Positions 2,520 through 16,842 of a stretch of 64,000 nucleotides of DNA are shown here, one piece after another. The stretch is from contig CAYQEJ010000005.1 in NCBI GenBank assembly GCA_964416505.1, positions 22,488-86,487 on the forward strand, read 5' to 3'. A program made the translations under genes and the position numbers. The DNA comes from an uncultured Gammaproteobacteria bacterium (GTDB taxonomy: Bacteria > Patescibacteriota > Microgenomatia > Levybacterales > UBA12049). The notes under the pieces are model-generated. The model worked only from the letters and a program-made list of their open reading frames with translations. It searched no databases and was not told the origin of the DNA. The number at the start of each line of letters is the position of its first letter. The first letter of the stretch is position 1.

Positions 2520-3071
2520 ATGGCAAAAATAATAAGCGCACCAGAAAAAGTATTGAGCGAAAAAGCAGCAGAATATGTATTTCAAAAAAATGATAAATTT
2601 CTGCCTGCAATTTTAAAAGAAATGGAAGATGCCCTTTTATCCGCAAGAGATCCAAAAGGAGTTGGACTTGCAGCACCACAGATAGCTCGCGGTATTTCAA
2701 TATTTATCACCAAGCCTTCTGAAAAAGCTCCCATTTCAGTTTTCATTAATCCTAAAATTATTGAATCTTCCCCAATTCCGGAAGAAAAAGAAAAAGAAAA
2801 TGAAGCAAAAAAACTTGAAGGTTGTCTTTCTCTTCCAAACATTTGGGGTGTAGTTAAAAGACATCCAGAAGTTACGCTTTCCTATTATGATCATTTAGGA
2901 AGACATAAAATTAAAAAATTCACTGGTTTTATGGCTACAATTGTTCAACATGAAGTAGATCATCTTAACGGGATTCTTTTCCCCAAAAGAGTACTGGAGC
3001 AAAATGGAATACTTTATAAATCCAGTAAAAATGATAAAGGCGAAGACGAATTTGAGGAAATCTCATTATGA
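2520..3071 (+). CDS. def: Peptide deformylase
   Basis: All three deformylase motifs: GVGLAAPQI, EGCLS, HEVDHLNG. 4-nt overlap with the downstream fmt gene, the classic def-fmt arrangement. Confidence 0.9.
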   Translation: MAKIISAPEKVLSEKAAEYVFQKNDKFLPAILKEMEDALLSARDPKGVGLAAPQIARGISIFITKPSEKAPISVFINPKIIESSPIPEEKEKENEAKKLEGCLSLPNIWGVVKRHPEVTLSYYDHLGRHKIKKFTGFMATIVQHEVDHLNGILFPKRVLEQNGILYKSSKNDKGEDEFEEISL

Positions 3072-3883
3072 AAGTAATTTTCTTCGGTGGTCGCCATGTT
3101 CACTCCATAACTAAATCACTAAATGAAAATTTTGATTTACCTCTTGTAGTTACCACAGATAAATCGATGGTGGATACTTGCAACGAAGAAGGTATTTTTT
3201 ATATTCACACATTAAGCTTCAATGAAAAAATTATTAAAAGCATTAAGGAAATAGATGCTGAAATTGGAATTGTGGCTGATTTTGGAATCATAATTCCTAA
3301 AGAAATCATTGATCTTTTTCCTAACGGAATAATAAACGTTCACCCATCTCTCCTTCCAAAATACAGAGGCCCTACTCCCGTCCAATCTGCAATCATAAAT
3401 GGTGATAAAAAAACAGGAATTTCCATAATAAAAATAGATGAAAAAATGGATCACGGACCTCTCCTTTATCAGGAAGAAAGTGACATAAAACCTACGGACT
3501 TTACTGAAAAACTTTTACTTGAGCTCTTTGATCGTGCTTCAGATATTCTTCCGGAAATAATTGAACATTTTGTAAATGGAGGAATTGAAGAATCTCCACA
3601 AGAAGACGAAAAAGCTACTTACACAAAAGAACTAAAGAAAGAAGATGGATATATAGATATGAAAAAATTACCAAGTCCTGAAAAATTAAAACTGATGATT
3701 AGAGGACTCAATCTGTGGCCAGGCGTATGGACGAAGTTTAAACTTGGCGAAAAGGAAGTTATCATAAAACTTTTACCAGACAATCAGATTCAAGTAGAGG
3801 GAAAAAAAGCTGTTGGATTTAAAGATTTTAAAAATGGATACGAAAAAGGCGAAGAGTTTTTGAAAAAATTGGGCTTAAGCTAA
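3068..3883 (+). CDS. fmt: Methionyl-tRNA formyltransferase
   Basis: Formyltransferase motif NVHPSLLPKYRGPTP. N-terminal formyl-transferase fold followed by a C-terminal domain. Operon with def. Confidence 0.85.
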   Translation: MKVIFFGGRHVHSITKSLNENFDLPLVVTTDKSMVDTCNEEGIFYIHTLSFNEKIIKSIKEIDAEIGIVADFGIIIPKEIIDLFPNGIINVHPSLLPKYRGPTPVQSAIINGDKKTGISIIKIDEKMDHGPLLYQEESDIKPTDFTEKLLLELFDRASDILPEIIEHFVNGGIEESPQEDEKATYTKELKKEDGYIDMKKLPSPEKLKLMIRGLNLWPGVWTKFKLGEKEVIIKLLPDNQIQVEGKKAVGFKDFKNGYEKGEEFLKKLGLS

Positions 3884-4135
3884 TCCCGATGCAACTGGAG
3901 CTACTGATGAAACTTCTGCTTCTTTTTTAGCTTTTAAAATTCTTGTACTTCTTCCTTTAACTTCTCTTAGACACTTTGTACAAAGTCTTACTTTCATCGA
4001 AGTTCCATCTACAATTATTCTTGCAGGATGAAGATTTGGTCTAAAAACTTTTCTCGTTCTATTTTTTGCATGCGAAACATTATGGCCCACCATAATTCCT
4101 TTTCCGCAGTTGTAACATCTAAATCCGCTGCTCAT
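3875..4135 (-). CDS. rpmB: Ribosomal protein L28 (zinc-ribbon type)
   Basis: Pattern C..CGK...G.N.SHA.N.T.R.F.PNL typical of L28, with an additional CxxC pair. Confidence 0.7.
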   Translation of the reverse strand: MSSGFRCYNCGKGIMVGHNVSHAKNRTRKVFRPNLHPARIIVDGTSMKVRLCTKCLREVKGRSTRILKAKKEAEVSSVAPVASGLA

Positions 4136-4208
4136 AGGCTAATATTATACAAAAATTGTACTCCAAACTCAAACGTTTGTTTAAATCTGATAAAATAGGT
4201 ATATAAAT

Positions 4209-4862
4209 ATGGAACTTGCCATCATCTCACTTTTAATTTTAGTGCCTTCCGTAATACTTCATGAAGTTGCTCATGGATGGGTCGCAGACAAATTAGGAGA
4301 TCCCACAGCCAGACTTTTAAATAGATTGACTCTAAATCCAATTCCCCACATCGATCCTTTGATGAGCGTAATTCTTCCTTTAATCTTAGTAATTTCTGGT
4401 TCACCTGTTATTTTCGGAGCTGCCAAACCAGTCCCGGTGGATCAATTTAATTTAAGAGATCCCAGAAAAGATATGGCTTTAGTTTCTCTAGCAGGTCCAA
4501 TCACAAATTTTTTAATTGCCGCAGTAGCGACTTTAATCTGGAAAATTGCTTCTCTTTATTTCGGATGGAACCAAATGGCTACTATCCCAGAGTTTCAATT
4601 TTGGATCCAATTCGTTCTAATTACAACTATAAAACTAAATGTAACCCTGGGAATCTTTAATCTTCTTCCAATTCCACCGCTGGATGGATCCAAGATATTT
4701 GCACTGCTTCTTCCGGAAGATACCGCTAGAACATATCTCTCTTTTGGAAATATAGGATTTTTTGTAATTTTTGCTCTTATGATGTTTCCGATTGGAGGAT
4801 TCTCACTAGGCGCTATTATGAATCAACTCGTTACCTTCGCCCTCAAACTTTTAGGCTTTTAA
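4209..4862 (+). CDS. Site-2 protease family (M50) intramembrane zinc metalloprotease
   Basis: HEVAHG zinc motif in the first TM helix. LLPIPPLDGSKIF (LDG motif). Multiple TM segments. Confidence 0.7.
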   Translation: MELAIISLLILVPSVILHEVAHGWVADKLGDPTARLLNRLTLNPIPHIDPLMSVILPLILVISGSPVIFGAAKPVPVDQFNLRDPRKDMALVSLAGPITNFLIAAVATLIWKIASLYFGWNQMATIPEFQFWIQFVLITTIKLNVTLGIFNLLPIPPLDGSKIFALLLPEDTARTYLSFGNIGFFVIFALMMFPIGGFSLGAIMNQLVTFALKLLGF

Positions 4863-4932
4863 TCCTTGGATCCAGCCTTTTAATTTCCCCTATTAATCTC
4901 AAAAAATTTTATAAACTCTCTGTAGCCTTGCT

Positions 4933-4963
4933 AGCCTCGCAAGGCCAGGCCTTGCGAGGCTAC
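4933..4963. repeat. REP-like 31-bp perfect palindrome (tagcctcgcaaggcc-a-ggccttgcgaggcta), copy 1
   Basis: Two 15-bp arms are exact reverse complements. Lies immediately 3' of the RAYT gene. Confidence 0.85.
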
Positions 4964-4972
4964 GACTATAAG

Positions 4973-5650
4973 TCAATCCTCTATTATTAAGTTGTCTAAT
5001 TTTTCGTAGTCGTTAAATTCTTTTATAAAATTTTCGTAAGTAAGATTTGGAAACTTTTGAGAAAAATGGATAAGCACTTCTTCTGGTCTAACCCATTTCG
5101 TATCTTTTATTCCCAAATATTCAGAATATGAAGATGGTGTCTCAGCATTTATGGCTTGCTTATGAATATACTTTGTTAAATGGACAAATTGTTCGCCATT
5201 TCCTACCAAAACAGCTTTGTAAACACCTTGAAACAAAGAACCTACTCTCTTATATTTCCTATTAAAATACATTGAATATCTAGTAAAAACAGAATTCATA
5301 AATTTATCTATACTATCCAAATGTTTTTGCTTCACGAAAAAATGGAAATGATTTGGCATCAAACAATAACAAATAAGCGTAATTTCATCAGAAAAATTAT
5401 TTAAATTAAGAAGTTTTAATACTTTATCTTTTTCTTTATATGAGGTCTCGGGGTCATTTAGCTTTTCGGCTAGTTCTTTTTCGTTTTTTGGCAATAGATA
5501 TTCCTTCAGGTAAGAAAGGAAAACCGAATAATCTTGAGCATCCAGAAATATTTTCCTTTTTTCTACCCCCCTGTTATAGAGATGATAGTAGCCATTCTCC
5601 AGATAGCTTTTCCTTCTATTCTTGGCAGGCATAATTTTAAAATAACACAA
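4973..5650 (-). CDS. REP-associated tyrosine transposase (RAYT) / IS200-like Y1 HUH transposase
   Basis: HUH motif (CLMPNHFHFFV) and catalytic Tyr motif (GSLFQGVYKAVLV). Flanked by REP palindromes at 4933-4963 and 5684-5698. Confidence 0.8.
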   Translation of the reverse strand: MCYFKIMPAKNRRKSYLENGYYHLYNRGVEKRKIFLDAQDYSVFLSYLKEYLLPKNEKELAEKLNDPETSYKEKDKVLKLLNLNNFSDEITLICYCLMPNHFHFFVKQKHLDSIDKFMNSVFTRYSMYFNRKYKRVGSLFQGVYKAVLVGNGEQFVHLTKYIHKQAINAETPSSYSEYLGIKDTKWVRPEEVLIHFSQKFPNLTYENFIKEFNDYEKLDNLIIED

Positions 5651-5683
5651 AACGCATCAAAAGGAAATTTAACGCCTGACCTC

Positions 5684-5698
5684 CTAGCCTCGCAAGGC
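5684..5698. repeat. REP half-site (tagcctcgcaaggcc), copy 2
   Basis: Exact 15-bp arm of the palindrome. The second arm is absent. Confidence 0.7.
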
Positions 5699-5906
5699 CA
5701 AACTAAAACTAGCTGATGATTTGGATAATATTTATCTTAAGAATGCTGGGATTTTATAGGCGAACCTCATATCTAGCCTTGAAAACTCCTAAAAGACACC
5801 TATTAAGAAATGGCTTTCTTATGCCTTCAAATACCCTTTGAATTTATCAACAAGAGGTACTCAAGGTCAACCAGCAATTGCTGAGTTAATTTGGTAAAAT
5901 TGCCTC

Positions 5907-7010
5907 ATGAATTTCCCTACTATAAAGGAAAGCGAATATACATACTCAAAACCAATTACAGTTAAAGAGTGGAATAACGGCACCATATGTGTGAAGGTGG
6001 GATATGTTAGAAAACACCCTGAAATAAACTGTATTGTGCTTGAAAAGAGATGGAAATCAAGACCTGACTGGTGGGAAACTAAAACGTTCTCAATAAAAGA
6101 TGCCAAAGATTGGCTTAAAATTAGAGATGCTGTCGAAAAACTTTTACCAGAACTTGCAGAAACACCCTCATCTCAGACAATAGAGAAAGCAATTAAGAAA
6201 GTTGGGAATGAAACAGAATTACTTGAGTTAGTAGCAACTTATCCTGAGCTTCTCGCACAAATCCCAAAAGATATCGACATCCTATCGCTTCCTGAAGATC
6301 ATAAGGAGGCGTTAAAAAAATTATTATCTGTGGGTGGAGAGCTGGCAAACATCGTCATAAAACGGCTAGCAGATGAGCCAATAGAAGACTTGAACCAATT
6401 TGTGAAATTATTAGATGAATTAAAACTATCGACAATCAACTCACTCGTGACACATGTCACCTCCCGCTTACGTTTCATTGAAATGTTCGAAAAAGCTATT
6501 CACAATGATGATTCTTATGAAAGACGTGGACCTGAATCTATTCATAACTTATTAAAGGTAAATATCTGGCTCCTAGACCAGAACTACTCTGTCTTACATG
6601 ATGATGAAACCCTTAGAAATATTATCCTCAAGGAATGGGATAAGGATGTAGGGAACCAAGGAGATGGAAAAAAACGTCCTGATTTTCTTTGCATGATTGA
6701 TCCACTATCACAACGCGATGGATACAAAAAATTGGTAATAGTTGAAATTAAAAGACCTACTGTAAAAATTACATTTGAGCATGTTAAGCAGATGATGGAA
6801 TATAAAGGGATCCTTCACTCATACTCGGGTAAGCAAATTGACTCTTTCGAATGCTTTCTGATTGGTAGAGAAGTTGACCCTACCTTACAAATTAACGACT
6901 TATCTAATTCGGGATTTGTTATCAAAACCTATACTGACTTTATCAGCGAAGCAAGAAGGTTCTATCAAGAATACTTCAAAATCATTGAACAAGAACACTA
7001 CGCTTTTTAG
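5907..7010 (+). CDS. Hypothetical protein with C-terminal PD-(D/E)xK nuclease-like motif (restriction-endonuclease-like fold; possibly DUF4263/Shedu-like)
   Basis: C-terminal RPDFLCMIDPLSQRDGYKKLVIVEIKRP shows D, then about 15 residues, then E-x-K on a predicted beta-strand, the canonical PD-(D/E)xK arrangement. N-terminal region unrelated. Sits alone between REP copies next to the RAYT. Confidence 0.45.
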   Translation: MNFPTIKESEYTYSKPITVKEWNNGTICVKVGYVRKHPEINCIVLEKRWKSRPDWWETKTFSIKDAKDWLKIRDAVEKLLPELAETPSSQTIEKAIKKVGNETELLELVATYPELLAQIPKDIDILSLPEDHKEALKKLLSVGGELANIVIKRLADEPIEDLNQFVKLLDELKLSTINSLVTHVTSRLRFIEMFEKAIHNDDSYERRGPESIHNLLKVNIWLLDQNYSVLHDDETLRNIILKEWDKDVGNQGDGKKRPDFLCMIDPLSQRDGYKKLVIVEIKRPTVKITFEHVKQMMEYKGILHSYSGKQIDSFECFLIGREVDPTLQINDLSNSGFVIKTYTDFISEARRFYQEYFKIIEQEHYAF

Positions 7011-7274
7011 TCCCATGCCGCACAAGATGATTCTACGTCACAAAATGGTTGTTTTTAAACGAGGAAAATAAACAGAGTCGCCATTTTAATTGCCCGGCGA
7101 CTCTGAGCATCTCACTAAATGCCACCCTGATTATTCCACTTTAAAATAACGATTTCAACTTCCTCACCCGAACTTTATGATGAACTGGATCAGATTGCGA
7201 ATTCTTTCAAATATACAGGAAACTGACACCCCTACTTACCAAATCCAGACTCCTCCCACCATACCCTATAATCT

Positions 7275-7305
7275 TAGCCTCGCAAGGCCTGGCCTTGCGA
7301 GGCTA
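7275..7305. repeat. REP-like 31-bp palindrome, copy 3
   Basis: tagcctcgcaaggcc-t-ggccttgcgaggcta. Same arms as copy 1 with a different central base. Confidence 0.85.
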
Positions 7306-7498
7306 GCGCTATAGACACTTTTAATTAAGCTTCTTGGCATTTTTATTTATTCCTTACTTGACATCTGGTGGGATTAAATTTATAAATTAGTTATAAAGGT
7401 TAAATAAACTTTTAATATAGTATCCAAAACCATACTATATTACTTCATTTAGCTGTAGAGGGGCTAAGTTTTAATAGTTTTAAATTTTTACTATGGGA

Positions 7499-7527
7499 TT
7501 GACATCCCCCACAAAATGTTGTATGAT
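7499..7527 (+). promoter_or_regulatory. Sigma70-type consensus promoter (TTGACA-17-TATGAT)
   Basis: Exact -35 and near-consensus -10 with a 17-nt spacer. ATG at 7536 is only 8 nt past the -10, so the transcript is leaderless or nearly so. Confidence 0.6.
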
Positions 7528-7535
7528 CCCCTCGT

Positions 7536-8150
7536 ATGTCAAGACCAGACGCATTAGAAGCACATGCACCAGTCCATCCTAGATGGCAAAGACCAGTTCC
7601 TGGGTATACACCCACCACAGATGGTGCACCTAAATTACCCAACAAACCTAGAACCCCACATATTCCACATATTAATCATGGAGGAAGAATTTTAGCAGGC
7701 GCTTTAGCTACAGCACTCACTCTTACAGCAGTTGAAGGATTTGTAAGGCCTCACGGAACTACAGATCCATCTGGAGCAAGAGCTGGTGAAGTCCCAGCAG
7801 AACAAATGAGATATCCATGGGATTCAGGAAATTTACACTTAGAATTGCAATATAAAGAGGTTGATCAGAACATATTTGAATTTTCAGGAGCACAAATCAC
7901 TAATGATCCAGAAACAGTAGACATTGGTGACGGAAAGTATGTCCAATTTGTTCTTGGAAGCGAATATGGCGAAACTGATGATCCATACGGTCACGTAACT
8001 ATTAATCTTATAAATGATGTTATGAAGGGTGGAGTTTGGGAAAAATCAGTTGATAAAGACGGAAAACCTATCACAGATGCTGAAGGAAAACCAGTCCTTC
8101 ATCACTATGGATATGTAGAACCAGAACCAGGTCAAGAAGGCATGTCATAA
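7536..8150 (+). CDS. Hypothetical Pro/Gly-rich protein with one hydrophobic segment
   Basis: ORF directly after the consensus promoter. Composition is Pro/Ala/Gly-rich with locally elevated GC, but codon choice is host-like (AGA Arg, CCA Pro). Confidence 0.5.
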   Translation: MSRPDALEAHAPVHPRWQRPVPGYTPTTDGAPKLPNKPRTPHIPHINHGGRILAGALATALTLTAVEGFVRPHGTTDPSGARAGEVPAEQMRYPWDSGNLHLELQYKEVDQNIFEFSGAQITNDPETVDIGDGKYVQFVLGSEYGETDDPYGHVTINLINDVMKGGVWEKSVDKDGKPITDAEGKPVLHHYGYVEPEPGQEGMS

Positions 8151-8161
8151 ATGCTATAGGC

Positions 8162-8190
8162 TTGACAAACAAGGCTAAATATGATATATT
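8162..8190 (+). promoter_or_regulatory. Sigma70-type consensus promoter (TTGACA-17-TATATT)
   Basis: Exact TTGACA with a 17-nt spacer. ATG at 8202 is 11 nt after the -10. Confidence 0.6.
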
Positions 8191-8201
8191 AGCCGCCTTA
8201 T

Positions 8202-9278
8202 ATGACAGAAGCATATAGACCAACACAAGGAGAAATACTTACTACACCAGTTGACCTAGCTGGCGTAAAAAACGTAACCAACACAGCTCCAAAAGCTTCA
8301 AGAAATGATTTATCACACGATATGATGGCAGGACCATCTTTTAGAGATAGAGCTCTAGCAGTTGCGCTAGCACTAAGCACTCTAGGAGGAGCCAAAGTAA
8401 TCCTTGATTCACAAACAGCAAAAGGACAATCGCCTTCTCCTGCACCATCAGTTGGCGCATCTTTTGAACCAGGCACAAGTCCAGTAGCTACAGATCCGAT
8501 TACAGGATTACCATGTGTTCCTGGAGAAAAACCAACACCTGAACCTTCAAAAGCACCACTACCTTCACTCCCACCAGACATAGGTATGGTTCCAGGAGGA
8601 GAAGTAGAATTATTTGCTTTCGCAAATACAGGAGGAGACAACGTAAAAGTAACAGCTGGAGCTCAATCGGAACCATCTTTAGCTCCTTCAGTAGCGCCTG
8701 AAGCAAGCCCAGAAGCTTCTCAAGACCCAGAAACCGCAAAGGCTGACTGCACACCAGCTCCAGAAAAAACTCCTTTAGCTGATTTAGACATCATTGCTGA
8801 AAAAGATAAGATTCTAGATCAAAACAAAAAACAGATTAAAAAGGTCAAATTCGCTAAACTCCAACAGGATATACTTGGTGATCCAGAAAATCCACAAGGT
8901 GAACCAGGTTTTTGGAATACCCATCAAGAAGAATTAGCTAAATTAAGAACATGGTATGATACTCCGCTAACGAGAACAGTTTTTGAAAATTATTTACACA
9001 ACATAAGCGTGGGTCCCGATTCAATTCAAGGAGACCCAGAGGCTTCAATTGCTGTCGAAAGACAAGCGGTTGATGCGGGATTTGTAACACTGTTCTTATT
9101 CATCGCAGATACCACAAATAACCAAGAAATAAGAGATGAGGCCCTTAGATTAGCTGACATGGCTTTCGATTATGGAGTTAGAGGAATTAATAAATTTCAA
9201 GACTTTGAAGCTAATCTAGCAGATATGAAATTCAAAATTAATGATACTGATTACTTCTATAACCTCACGAATCAATAA
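8202..9278 (+). CDS. Hypothetical protein: N-terminal hydrophobic segment, Pro/Ser/Ala-rich linker, structured C-terminal domain
   Basis: Low-complexity PSPAPS/PEPSKAPLPSLPP region. C-terminal part is non-repetitive. Confidence 0.5.
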   Translation: MTEAYRPTQGEILTTPVDLAGVKNVTNTAPKASRNDLSHDMMAGPSFRDRALAVALALSTLGGAKVILDSQTAKGQSPSPAPSVGASFEPGTSPVATDPITGLPCVPGEKPTPEPSKAPLPSLPPDIGMVPGGEVELFAFANTGGDNVKVTAGAQSEPSLAPSVAPEASPEASQDPETAKADCTPAPEKTPLADLDIIAEKDKILDQNKKQIKKVKFAKLQQDILGDPENPQGEPGFWNTHQEELAKLRTWYDTPLTRTVFENYLHNISVGPDSIQGDPEASIAVERQAVDAGFVTLFLFIADTTNNQEIRDEALRLADMAFDYGVRGINKFQDFEANLADMKFKINDTDYFYNLTNQ

Positions 9279-15561: not shown

Positions 15562-16842
15562 ATGTTCTGCGAAGGATTTACCCTGAGCTTGACGAAGGGA
15601 TGTGGTGAAACGGCTATCACAGCAGTCTCCAAAACTGCTTTTCTCAGTTCGAATCTGAGCATCCCTGCAAAAAATCCACTTGAATCCCCTTTTTCTAAGT
15701 GCTATATTTTCCCTGTGCCAAATCCCGAGCGTAGATACCCCCTGCCTCGAAGAGATAGTTTTAAAAAGCGCTTAGCAGCTGCTGGAATGTCAGTAATCAT
15801 GTCAGGCGCTCCTATTTCTCTTCCAGCTCACTACGACCCCATACAAGCCAATCCAGACCAACAATATGGAATGTATAGCTACGGCATACAGGGTTATCAA
15901 GTTATTAAAGATACCGGCGATATTTCAAGAGGTTTTGATCCTACAGAAGGAAGAGGAAAAGAATATGGAGAAAAAGATAAAGAAAAACTCGTAGATCTTC
16001 TAGAGACAGTTTACGATGCAAATTTAAACTTTGTTTTTTTCTCATGGTATCCGGATATAAGAGACGACTTCTGGACATTAGTAGATGATGTTATGACTAA
16101 CCCATCTAACCCATATAAAGATTTAGTAAAAACATCCTTTGTTTATGAGCCTGAATCCAATGAAGACTCCATGGAACTATCTAGGATGAACGACGACATT
16201 GGAAAACTTAGCAGATTTTTTGATAAACCTTATTTTTTAAAAAACAAGGATGGCAAACCTGTATTTACTGTTTTTGCTTCAGAATGGGAAGGATTTGTTA
16301 ACAATAGCGGTTATGTTCAGAAATGGGATGAAATAGCAGAAAAATATGGCGCATATATAATTCTTGAAGATTATCCAGGAATAAGTTTGAATCCTAGCTA
16401 CCAAAATAGTCAGGATAGAATAGGATCCATTAGCTATGGCGATGATCCGTGGCTTCTCACCTCTGACGGCTACCGAGAAGGAAGAAATGCAGTAAGAATT
16501 AGATGGAGCTACCACAAACCTGGTGATTTTAAATGGCAAGACTATAGCGCTACGCAACTCAAAACAAACATAGGCAGGATGCTTGCTTCAGGTGAAGAAT
16601 TTGGAATAGGAATATCAATAGATGAAGGCTACGAAGATACACAGGCTACACCTCAAGTTTTCGATATTTTCAAAGCCTCTCTTCCTGACCGGGCAAGTTA
16701 TGACAATTTATCTAGAGAAGAAAAAATAAAAGTTCTCAGAAATAAAGCGCAAGATCTTCGAAATGGAGAATCTTTACCACCTCCGCCTTTCCTTATCTAC
16801 GATAACGCGACAGATAGAACCAGAAGACAAAGAATAGCATAA
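15562..16842 (+). CDS. Hypothetical protein, possibly a glycoside-hydrolase-like TIM-barrel protein
   Basis: No signature motif recognised with confidence. Inserted between rpmG and secE. The true start may be an internal Met (MSVIMSG...). Confidence 0.45.
   Translation: MFCEGFTLSLTKGCGETAITAVSKTAFLSSNLSIPAKNPLESPFSKCYIFPVPNPERRYPLPRRDSFKKRLAAAGMSVIMSGAPISLPAHYDPIQANPDQQYGMYSYGIQGYQVIKDTGDISRGFDPTEGRGKEYGEKDKEKLVDLLETVYDANLNFVFFSWYPDIRDDFWTLVDDVMTNPSNPYKDLVKTSFVYEPESNEDSMELSRMNDDIGKLSRFFDKPYFLKNKDGKPVFTVFASEWEGFVNNSGYVQKWDEIAEKYGAYIILEDYPGISLNPSYQNSQDRIGSISYGDDPWLLTSDGYREGRNAVRIRWSYHKPGDFKWQDYSATQLKTNIGRMLASGEEFGIGISIDEGYEDTQATPQVFDIFKASLPDRASYDNLSREEKIKVLRNKAQDLRNGESLPPPPFLIYDNATDRTRRQRIA

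Follow-up and report, generated by a model that had tools for sequence, protein, structure and literature searches.

The 64,000-nucleotide stretch of contig CAYQEJ010000005.1 analysed here (the window, to which all coordinates refer) comes from an assembly that GTDB places in the Patescibacteriota, and it carries at positions 5907-7010 a gene for a 367-aa nuclease. We regard it as probable (about 60%), arguing by analogy, that the product is a divergent single-protein nuclease of the Shedu/HgiDII type, carried as cargo of mobile or otherwise variable regions in Patescibacteria and most likely serving in anti-phage or anti-plasmid defence. An earlier note, written by a model from the letters alone, had proposed a stand-alone Shedu-like PD-(D/E)xK nuclease at this place. 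That proposal is largely borne out; what did not stand are its choice of the catalytic Asp, the extent of the N-terminal part that it called unrecognisable, and the significance that it gave to the nearby repetitive extragenic palindromic (REP) sequences and their REP-associated tyrosine transposase (RAYT).

Active site and fold of the nuclease domain

The open reading frame (ORF) on the forward strand is intact and begins with ATG, and its position, length and strand are exactly those that had been proposed. Because the N-terminus matches the homologues residue by residue in the alignment, the start codon can be taken as correct. The gene and its predicted parts are the following.

5907..7010, forward strand: complete nuclease gene, 367 aa, assigned to the Shedu/HgiDII-type PD-(D/E)xK nucleases
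5907..6161, forward strand: small β-rich N-terminal domain (aa 1-85, from secondary structure), family-specific, putative sensor or nucleic-acid-binding domain
6162..6503, forward strand: helical linker (aa ~86-199), homologous to the part of BbrUII/HgiDII-like proteins that precedes the nuclease
6504..7010, forward strand: PD-(D/E)xK nuclease domain (aa 200-367)
6519-6521, forward strand: motif I, E205
6681-6683, forward strand: motif II, the D of P258-D259
6744-6752, forward strand: motif III, E280-x-K282
6789-6803, forward strand: motif IV, Q295...Y299

Conservation was counted across 52 aligned full-length homologues of 45-66% identity. The residues E205, W221, R257, P258, D259, E280, K282, P284, Q295 and Y299 are invariant in all 52, and the stretch E280-I281-K282-R283-P284 is invariant or almost so. 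The catalytic residues are likewise invariant in two distant groups of relatives, at a mean column identity of 19-26%. The Asp of the tripeptide MID, D265, had been proposed as catalytic; this position is Asp in just 23 of the 52 homologues, whereas D259 in R-P-D-F is found in every one of them. Moreover, D259 directly precedes the predicted strand 260-264, and the ExK motif lies on strand 275-281. Judged from these alignments, the catalytic Asp is most probably D259 of the canonical PD dipeptide and not D265. The ORF product does contain the sequence RPDFLCMIDPLSQRDGYKKLVIVEIKRP, and the string VIVEIKRP that had been read in it is indeed there. However, such a motif string, which had been called a textbook core, is no evidence by itself, because the pattern D-x(10-30)-[DE]-x-K turns up in 99.9% of shuffles of the window protein. 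The PD-(D/E)xK assignment rests on conservation and fold, not on the string.

For the fold we used an AlphaFold2 model built with the 52-sequence alignment, in which the predicted local distance difference test (pLDDT) reaches 80-93 in the nuclease domain. In this model, strands 11-63 and helix 66-79 make up the β-rich N-terminal domain; residues 90-198 are helical, and residues 200-361 fold as an α/β nuclease domain. Foldseek retrieved NucS/EndoMS with a probability of 0.95-0.97 and also MspJI, AspBHI and Cap4; NucS/EndoMS aligns structurally with the catalytic core only. The closest solved structure to the nuclease domain is Shedu SduA, the comparison that the earlier note had called for. 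A fold other than PD-(D/E)xK, which would have spoken against the idea, did not appear, and the Foldseek matches point to this fold. The C-terminal part thus reads, from sequence and model, as a genuine PD-(D/E)xK nuclease with a putative metal-dependent site formed by E205, D259, E280, K282 and Q295.

Shedu-type and HgiDII-type relatives

The protein resembles in its layout the Type 1A Shedu of B. cereus (PDB 8ti8/8ti9), a protein of 380 aa. In the latter, residues 1-117 form a β-β-β-β-α domain like that of sPC4/Whirly, residues 118-170 the helical linker and residues 171-380 the nuclease, whose catalytic residues are E204, D249, E264, K266 and Q295 (PMC10441436). Both are encoded by one gene of about 370-380 codons, in both a small β-rich domain at the N-terminus is followed by the linker and then by the PD-(D/E)xK nuclease at the C-terminus, and the motif positions run in parallel, with E205/D259/E280-K282/Q295 in the window protein and E204/D249/E264-K266/Q295 in Shedu. 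Homologues of both are found in defence islands and mobile elements. The two differ in the spacing between motifs II and III, which is 21 residues in the window protein and 15 in Shedu, and in the N-terminal domain, which has ~80 aa compared with 117 aa. In addition, the named members of our family come mostly from Patescibacteria, a phylum that the Shedu survey names nowhere in its main text (0 occurrences; PMC10441436). We found no Shedu-type system described for Patescibacteria: of the papers listed by a literature search on Shedu and the candidate phyla radiation, none speaks of Shedu. The window protein had a single Pfam match with E < 0.01, which was to SduA_C (E 0.0032, 18.1 bits, aa 211-292). 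Sub-threshold SduA_C matches were obtained for 31/52 family members (best E 3.4e-5), and PF14082 is among the precomputed matches of the fragment homologue P0074.

The strongest sequence relationship leads to the BbrUII/HgiDII-like restriction enzymes. The NCBIfam model restrict_BbrUII (NF050001) matches aa 158-359 at E 8.9e-10 over profile positions 437-644 of 659, with a score of 37.7 bits as compared with the equivalog cut-off of 550. When the window family was compared by hhalign with a group of relatives that fuse the nuclease to a GHKL ATPase, the match had a probability of 100% (E 1.1e-39) over 289 columns. Because it spans aa 65-363, the linker as well as the nuclease belongs to the common module, in which E, W, RPD, ExKRP and QxxxY are identical. 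These enzymes carry a ~300-aa N-terminal GHKL (HATPase_c_3) ATPase and a middle domain, both of which are missing from the window protein; Pfam indeed gave no HATPase_c_3 match. The small N-terminal β-domain appears, by sequence comparison, to stand in place of the ATPase. A further difference is that no cytosine methyltransferase adjoins the window gene, the neighbouring ORFs within the window being free of methyltransferase domains, and none is conserved beside the homologues. GHKL-fused proteins are counted among the Shedu homologues by Gu et al. (PMC10441436), and the C-terminal domain of R.HgiDII was left unassigned by Orlowski and Bujnicki (PMC2441816).

With this comparison the description of the first ~250 aa as unrecognisable proves overstated: the nuclease starts at about aa 200, and aa 65-200 form a helical linker of ~135 aa that is common to HgiDII-like enzymes. 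The family-specific portion would comprise only the first ~65-80 aa, as far as alignments can tell. This N-terminal domain has the topology β-β-β-β-α, which would suit a PC4/Whirly-type domain, and lies outside the region common to the GHKL-nuclease relatives. It gave weak Pur-alpha/PC4-like structural matches, with NTF2-like sheets scoring higher, and when modelled on its own it reached a pLDDT of just 60, a poor value. In the Pfam and structural searches no modified-base reader, whether SRA, EVE or another, resembled it. It is a possibility that the β-domain is a sensor type outside those catalogued for Shedu. Within the linker, helix 162-198 is long and highly conserved (LKLSTINSLVTHVTSRL.FI..FEK).

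The window protein belongs to a conserved, unannotated family of 79 proteins, found among 5.8 billion. Members with a named source are few and mostly from Patescibacteria, and a pattern-based scan of a collection of 185,579 species genomes returned just 6 loci. The family is hence rare and sporadic in its distribution. An exhaustive search with hidden Markov models (HMMs) retrieved 1,116 representative proteins at E ≤ 1e-3, among which are two groups of relatives. Members of the first group have ~370-440 aa and correspond to the window family from about residue 40-60 onward, some with Zn-ribbons. Those of the second have ~560-670 aa and begin with a GHKL ATPase; 36/39 match HATPase_c_3, and 37 of the 39 match the BbrUII/HgiDII model. 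Fusions to a DrmA-like helicase or to Roc-COR-LRR occur occasionally. In all three groups, the window family included, E, W, RPD, ExK(R)P and QxxxY are invariant, and all three give weak matches to SduA_C, HSDR_N(_2) and NucS_C; for SduA_C, values down to E 1.2e-6 occur among members of the GHKL group. The top relative outside the core family (P0086, E 1.4e-50), which falls into the ~370-440-aa group, is from the DPANN archaeon Ca. Nanosalina and may hint at an exchange of the nuclease between ultra-small bacteria and archaea.

Plasmid-borne GHKL-nuclease relatives, too, are located in defence islands. One on a Streptococcus agalactiae plasmid lies between 5-methylcytosine (m5C) methyltransferases, and one on a Psychrobacter plasmid lies beside Drt2 and dcm/LlaMI. 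On the latter plasmid (pP62BP1, L024 1-5756) the m5C methyltransferase and the LlaMI-family restriction enzyme are situated just upstream of the nuclease relative, and a corresponding pair is found ~2 kb upstream of a window-family homologue (L012 3088-8119). This may be a recurring pairing.

Genomic contexts and the REP/RAYT neighbourhood

We collected twelve independent neighbourhoods of homologues besides the window, and a test for conserved neighbours covered 14 loci. All 12 neighbourhoods differ from one another:

L012/L013: m5C methylase, LlaMI-type restriction endonuclease, integrase and two serine recombinases
L015: Lit-like Peptidase_U49, KAP NTPase, HTH and a serine recombinase adjoining smpB
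L017: recombinase related to that of L015, adjoining smpB
L020: Type IIG restriction-modification (R-M) system and GmrSD
L019: TraG/VirB4-like conjugation genes
L001, L014: serine recombinases
L002/L003: DinB and S24 peptidase, with Mrr_cat nearby
L018, L022: glycosyltransferase or polysaccharide clusters
L004/L005: between nusG and rplK, on the opposite strand

The earlier note had suggested looking for homologues in defence islands. Restriction or other defence genes (R-M, GmrSD, Lit, KAP) adjoin the gene in 3/12 contexts, and 6/12 carry serine recombinases, an integrase or conjugation genes; 3-4 contexts are uninformative. No neighbour is conserved across the 14 loci, so that the nuclease is to be seen as a single-gene unit, as had been proposed from its architecture and in parallel to the B. 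cereus Shedu (PMC10441436); a two-gene system was considered and rejected, as no conserved partner gene was found. The distribution of the nuclease is accessory or mobile and its organisation that of a single gene.

Two of these settings deserve description in their own right. The homologue P0035 (55% identical; L004 8001-9110 and L005 4578-5687) sits inside an otherwise conserved secE-nusG-rplKAJL operon, an odd landing site for an accessory gene, and has a small ORF on either side (55 and 81 aa). At L015 (11207-13722) and L017 (11033-13445) large serine recombinases, 43% identical to each other, mark the island end directly beside smpB, and a hypothetical protein of 143-159 aa is encoded in both islands. 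The two look like members of one integrative-island family that targets the smpB/tmRNA region in Patescibacteria.

In the window itself the nuclease gene is accompanied by REP-like elements and a RAYT:

4932..4962, no strand: REP-like perfect palindrome of 31 nt with 15-bp arms, TAGCCTCGCAAGGCC-N-GGCCTTGCGAGGCTA, downstream of the RAYT
4973..5650, reverse strand: RAYT-like Y1 (HUH)/IS200-type transposase, Pfam Y1_Tnp 39.4 bits, E 7.7e-10, above cut-off
5685..5699, forward strand: REP half-site of 15 nt, a single one, lying between the nuclease gene and the start of the RAYT
7275..7305, no strand: second copy of the 31-nt palindrome, 265 nt past the nuclease stop codon
20621-20635: REP half copy

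The elements that the earlier note had seen next to the gene are therefore really there. Half-site matches in the window number 6 against 0.07 expected, and the transposase also gives a weak match to the NCBIfam model REP_Tyr_transpos. Together with their flanks the two palindromes form a 41-nt inverted repeat (4930-4970 and 7267-7307, 95% complementary), which brackets a 2.4-kb segment (4930-7307) with the RAYT, the REP half-site and the nuclease gene. The arrangement is like that of classical REP/RAYT loci in that a Y1 HUH transposase is flanked by species-specific palindromic REP copies; it is unlike them in that the nuclease is no known or conserved component and the association is unique to the window. 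The RAYT family counts >7,675 proteins at E ≤ 1e-10, the best 120 of which are 62-81% identical, and its few homologues with a named source are Patescibacteria, for example Levybacteria. Since the family is very large and highly conserved, the RAYT of the window suggests itself as a domesticated, widely retained gene.

More importantly, no RAYT or REP-like hairpin lies near the nuclease homologues in any of the 12 other contexts (12/12), so that the REP/RAYT adjacency is best read as a coincidence: the elements are neighbours of the nuclease, not components. The REP/RAYT islet, which had been regarded as a meaningful setting, thereby loses its significance, and the RAYT as a partner of the nuclease was rejected because the linkage is not recurrent. 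That 4930-7307 is a RAYT-mobilised cassette with a Shedu-type defence nuclease as cargo we consider very doubtful; if true, ultra-small bacteria would have a new route by which immunity genes spread. When metagenomes were scanned for the REP palindrome, one otherwise unrelated contig came up (Ga0154836_166, L021), in which the identical 31-nt palindrome occurs once (9008-9038), at the end of the 9-kb contig.

The gene had also been described as lying away from core genes, which does not hold: def, fmt, rpmB and an M50 protease gene are located directly upstream (2520-4862). A comparison of the window flanks with L004 could not show an insertion, as the two are too divergent (41% identity for the M50 protease, no relationship between the downstream ORFs), and an Rfam scan of 4000-9000 gave one chance match only (E 0.5). 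Further downstream we noted an AT-rich hairpin with an 11-bp stem (7413-7442), followed by a near-consensus sigma-70-like promoter (7499-7527, TTGACA-17-TATGAT, 11/12) just upstream of ORF 7536-8150. This ORF opens a run of Pro/Thr/Ser-rich ORFs (7536-9278) with a higher GC of 0.41-0.43 and no Pfam matches. At 15562-16842 a mechanical 426-aa ORF overlaps tRNA-Trp (15596-15668), so that its real start must lie further downstream; after trimming, the product has 389 aa and no Pfam match.

Competing explanations and biological meaning

Several observations speak against a Shedu-type defence nuclease. The SduA_C score of 18.1 bits lies under the Pfam PF14082 gathering score of 27, so the suggested DUF4263 check gave a match that falls short of the threshold, and HSDR_N_2 matches 33/52 family members compared with 31/52 for SduA_C; because it matches as many, the domain is by sequence assignable only to the PD-(D/E)xK clan. 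PADLOC gave no match for the window protein, and its SduA model matched 1/52 family members (E 0.002). With the family profile no SduA chain was retrieved from the PDB even at E ≤ 10. Likewise, PDB sequence searches with the protein and with the profiles A1 and A3 gave no SduA, the best nuclease match being EndoMS at E 0.72, and the A4 profile matched GHKL parts only. In its sub-threshold Pfam score and in the missing PADLOC and PDB profile matches the protein differs from Shedu. Furthermore, the whole-protein model is only of medium quality (mean pLDDT 70), tblastn found no match to the nuclease in phage genomes, and the contexts L018, L022 and L004/L005 (the nusG-rplK operon) contain no defence or mobile genes. 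Of the proposed likeness to Shedu (DUF4263), the structural side and the common layout stood, with SduA as the closest solved structure; a recognisable profile membership did not.

Among the other explanations, a solitary restriction endonuclease instead of a sensor-gated Shedu is the nearest rival, though rather unlikely. The protein would then be the nuclease half of an HgiDII-type enzyme after loss of the GHKL ATPase, constitutively active and either sequence-specific or modification-dependent (Type IV-like), with the N-terminal domain for DNA recognition. This fits with the BbrUII/HgiDII-like enzymes as the strongest sequence relationship and with the m5C methyltransferases that adjoin them, with the R-M systems beside some homologues, and with the structural matches MspJI and AspBHI, which are modification-dependent and combine an N-terminal reader with a C-terminal PD-(D/E)xK domain. 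Restriction-like behaviour has moreover been proposed for some Shedu proteins by Gu et al. (PMC10441436). Yet no methyltransferase adjoins the window gene or is conserved beside the homologues, the N-terminal domain is unlike SRA, EVE and other modified-base readers, and the conserved long helical linker resembles the regulatory linker of Shedu; the distinction from Shedu is also partly semantic.

We judge it improbable that the gene is a selfish or mobile-element nuclease, which could be of the free-standing homing type or an element-maintenance or toxin gene, and here perhaps the cargo of a RAYT/REP cassette. The ever-changing contexts, one of them between nusG and rplK on the opposite strand, the frequent linkage of homologues to serine recombinases, an integrase and a conjugative element, and the enclosure of RAYT and nuclease by the 41-nt inverted repeat would all agree with it. 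However, neither a RAYT nor a REP-like hairpin is near any other homologue, and with a RAYT family that is ~100 times commoner than the nuclease family (>7,675 vs 79) such an adjacency is expected occasionally by chance. In addition, no intein or intron context, no conserved target gene and no antitoxin-like conserved small partner was found. Least of all would we expect a housekeeping DNA-repair nuclease, NucS/EndoMS- or RecB-like, for mismatch or flap processing, a highly unlikely reading that we rejected on distribution and synteny. Like NucS/EndoMS the protein has an N-terminal β-domain and a C-terminal RecB-like PD-(D/E)xK domain with the Q...Y motif; a QxxxY behind ExK is what the RecB/NucS/Cas4-like branch typically has, NucS/EndoMS is the Foldseek match at 0.95-0.97, and distant relatives match NucS_C. 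But NucS is a conserved repair gene, whereas the window family is sporadic and accessory (only 6 loci from the species genomes, 79 proteins in all) and shows no synteny across the 12 contexts. The window protein is also larger than the ~250-aa NucS, has the long helical linker, and matches neither NucS_C nor NucS_N in Pfam.

We therefore favour the Shedu/HgiDII-type defence nuclease, for which the defence role is plausible by analogy and anti-phage activity is what we infer. By analogy to the Shedu proteins of B. cereus and E. coli (PMC10441436; bioRxiv 10.1101/2023.08.10.552762), the protein would oligomerise through its linker and nuclease domains. The N-terminal domains may keep the nuclease inactive, or without a target, as long as they have bound no feature of an invader's nucleic acid (ssDNA or free DNA ends, for example); after such binding the nuclease would nick or cut the foreign DNA.

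In summary, we describe a divergent, previously unannotated family of known type, which reveals no new principle, and should it turn out not to be a defence gene, the practical consequence would be small. Defence censuses that work with curated HMM cut-offs miss this family, because PADLOC is blind to it and its Pfam score is sub-threshold. Through this family the C-terminal domain of R.HgiDII, which had long lacked an assignment (PMC2441816), is linked with the Shedu-type nuclease module, and the compact 367-aa form, with a β-domain replacing the ATPase, could serve as a minimal model of N-terminal gating. For the Patescibacteria it would show that a Shedu/HgiDII-type nuclease module circulates on their mobile islands.

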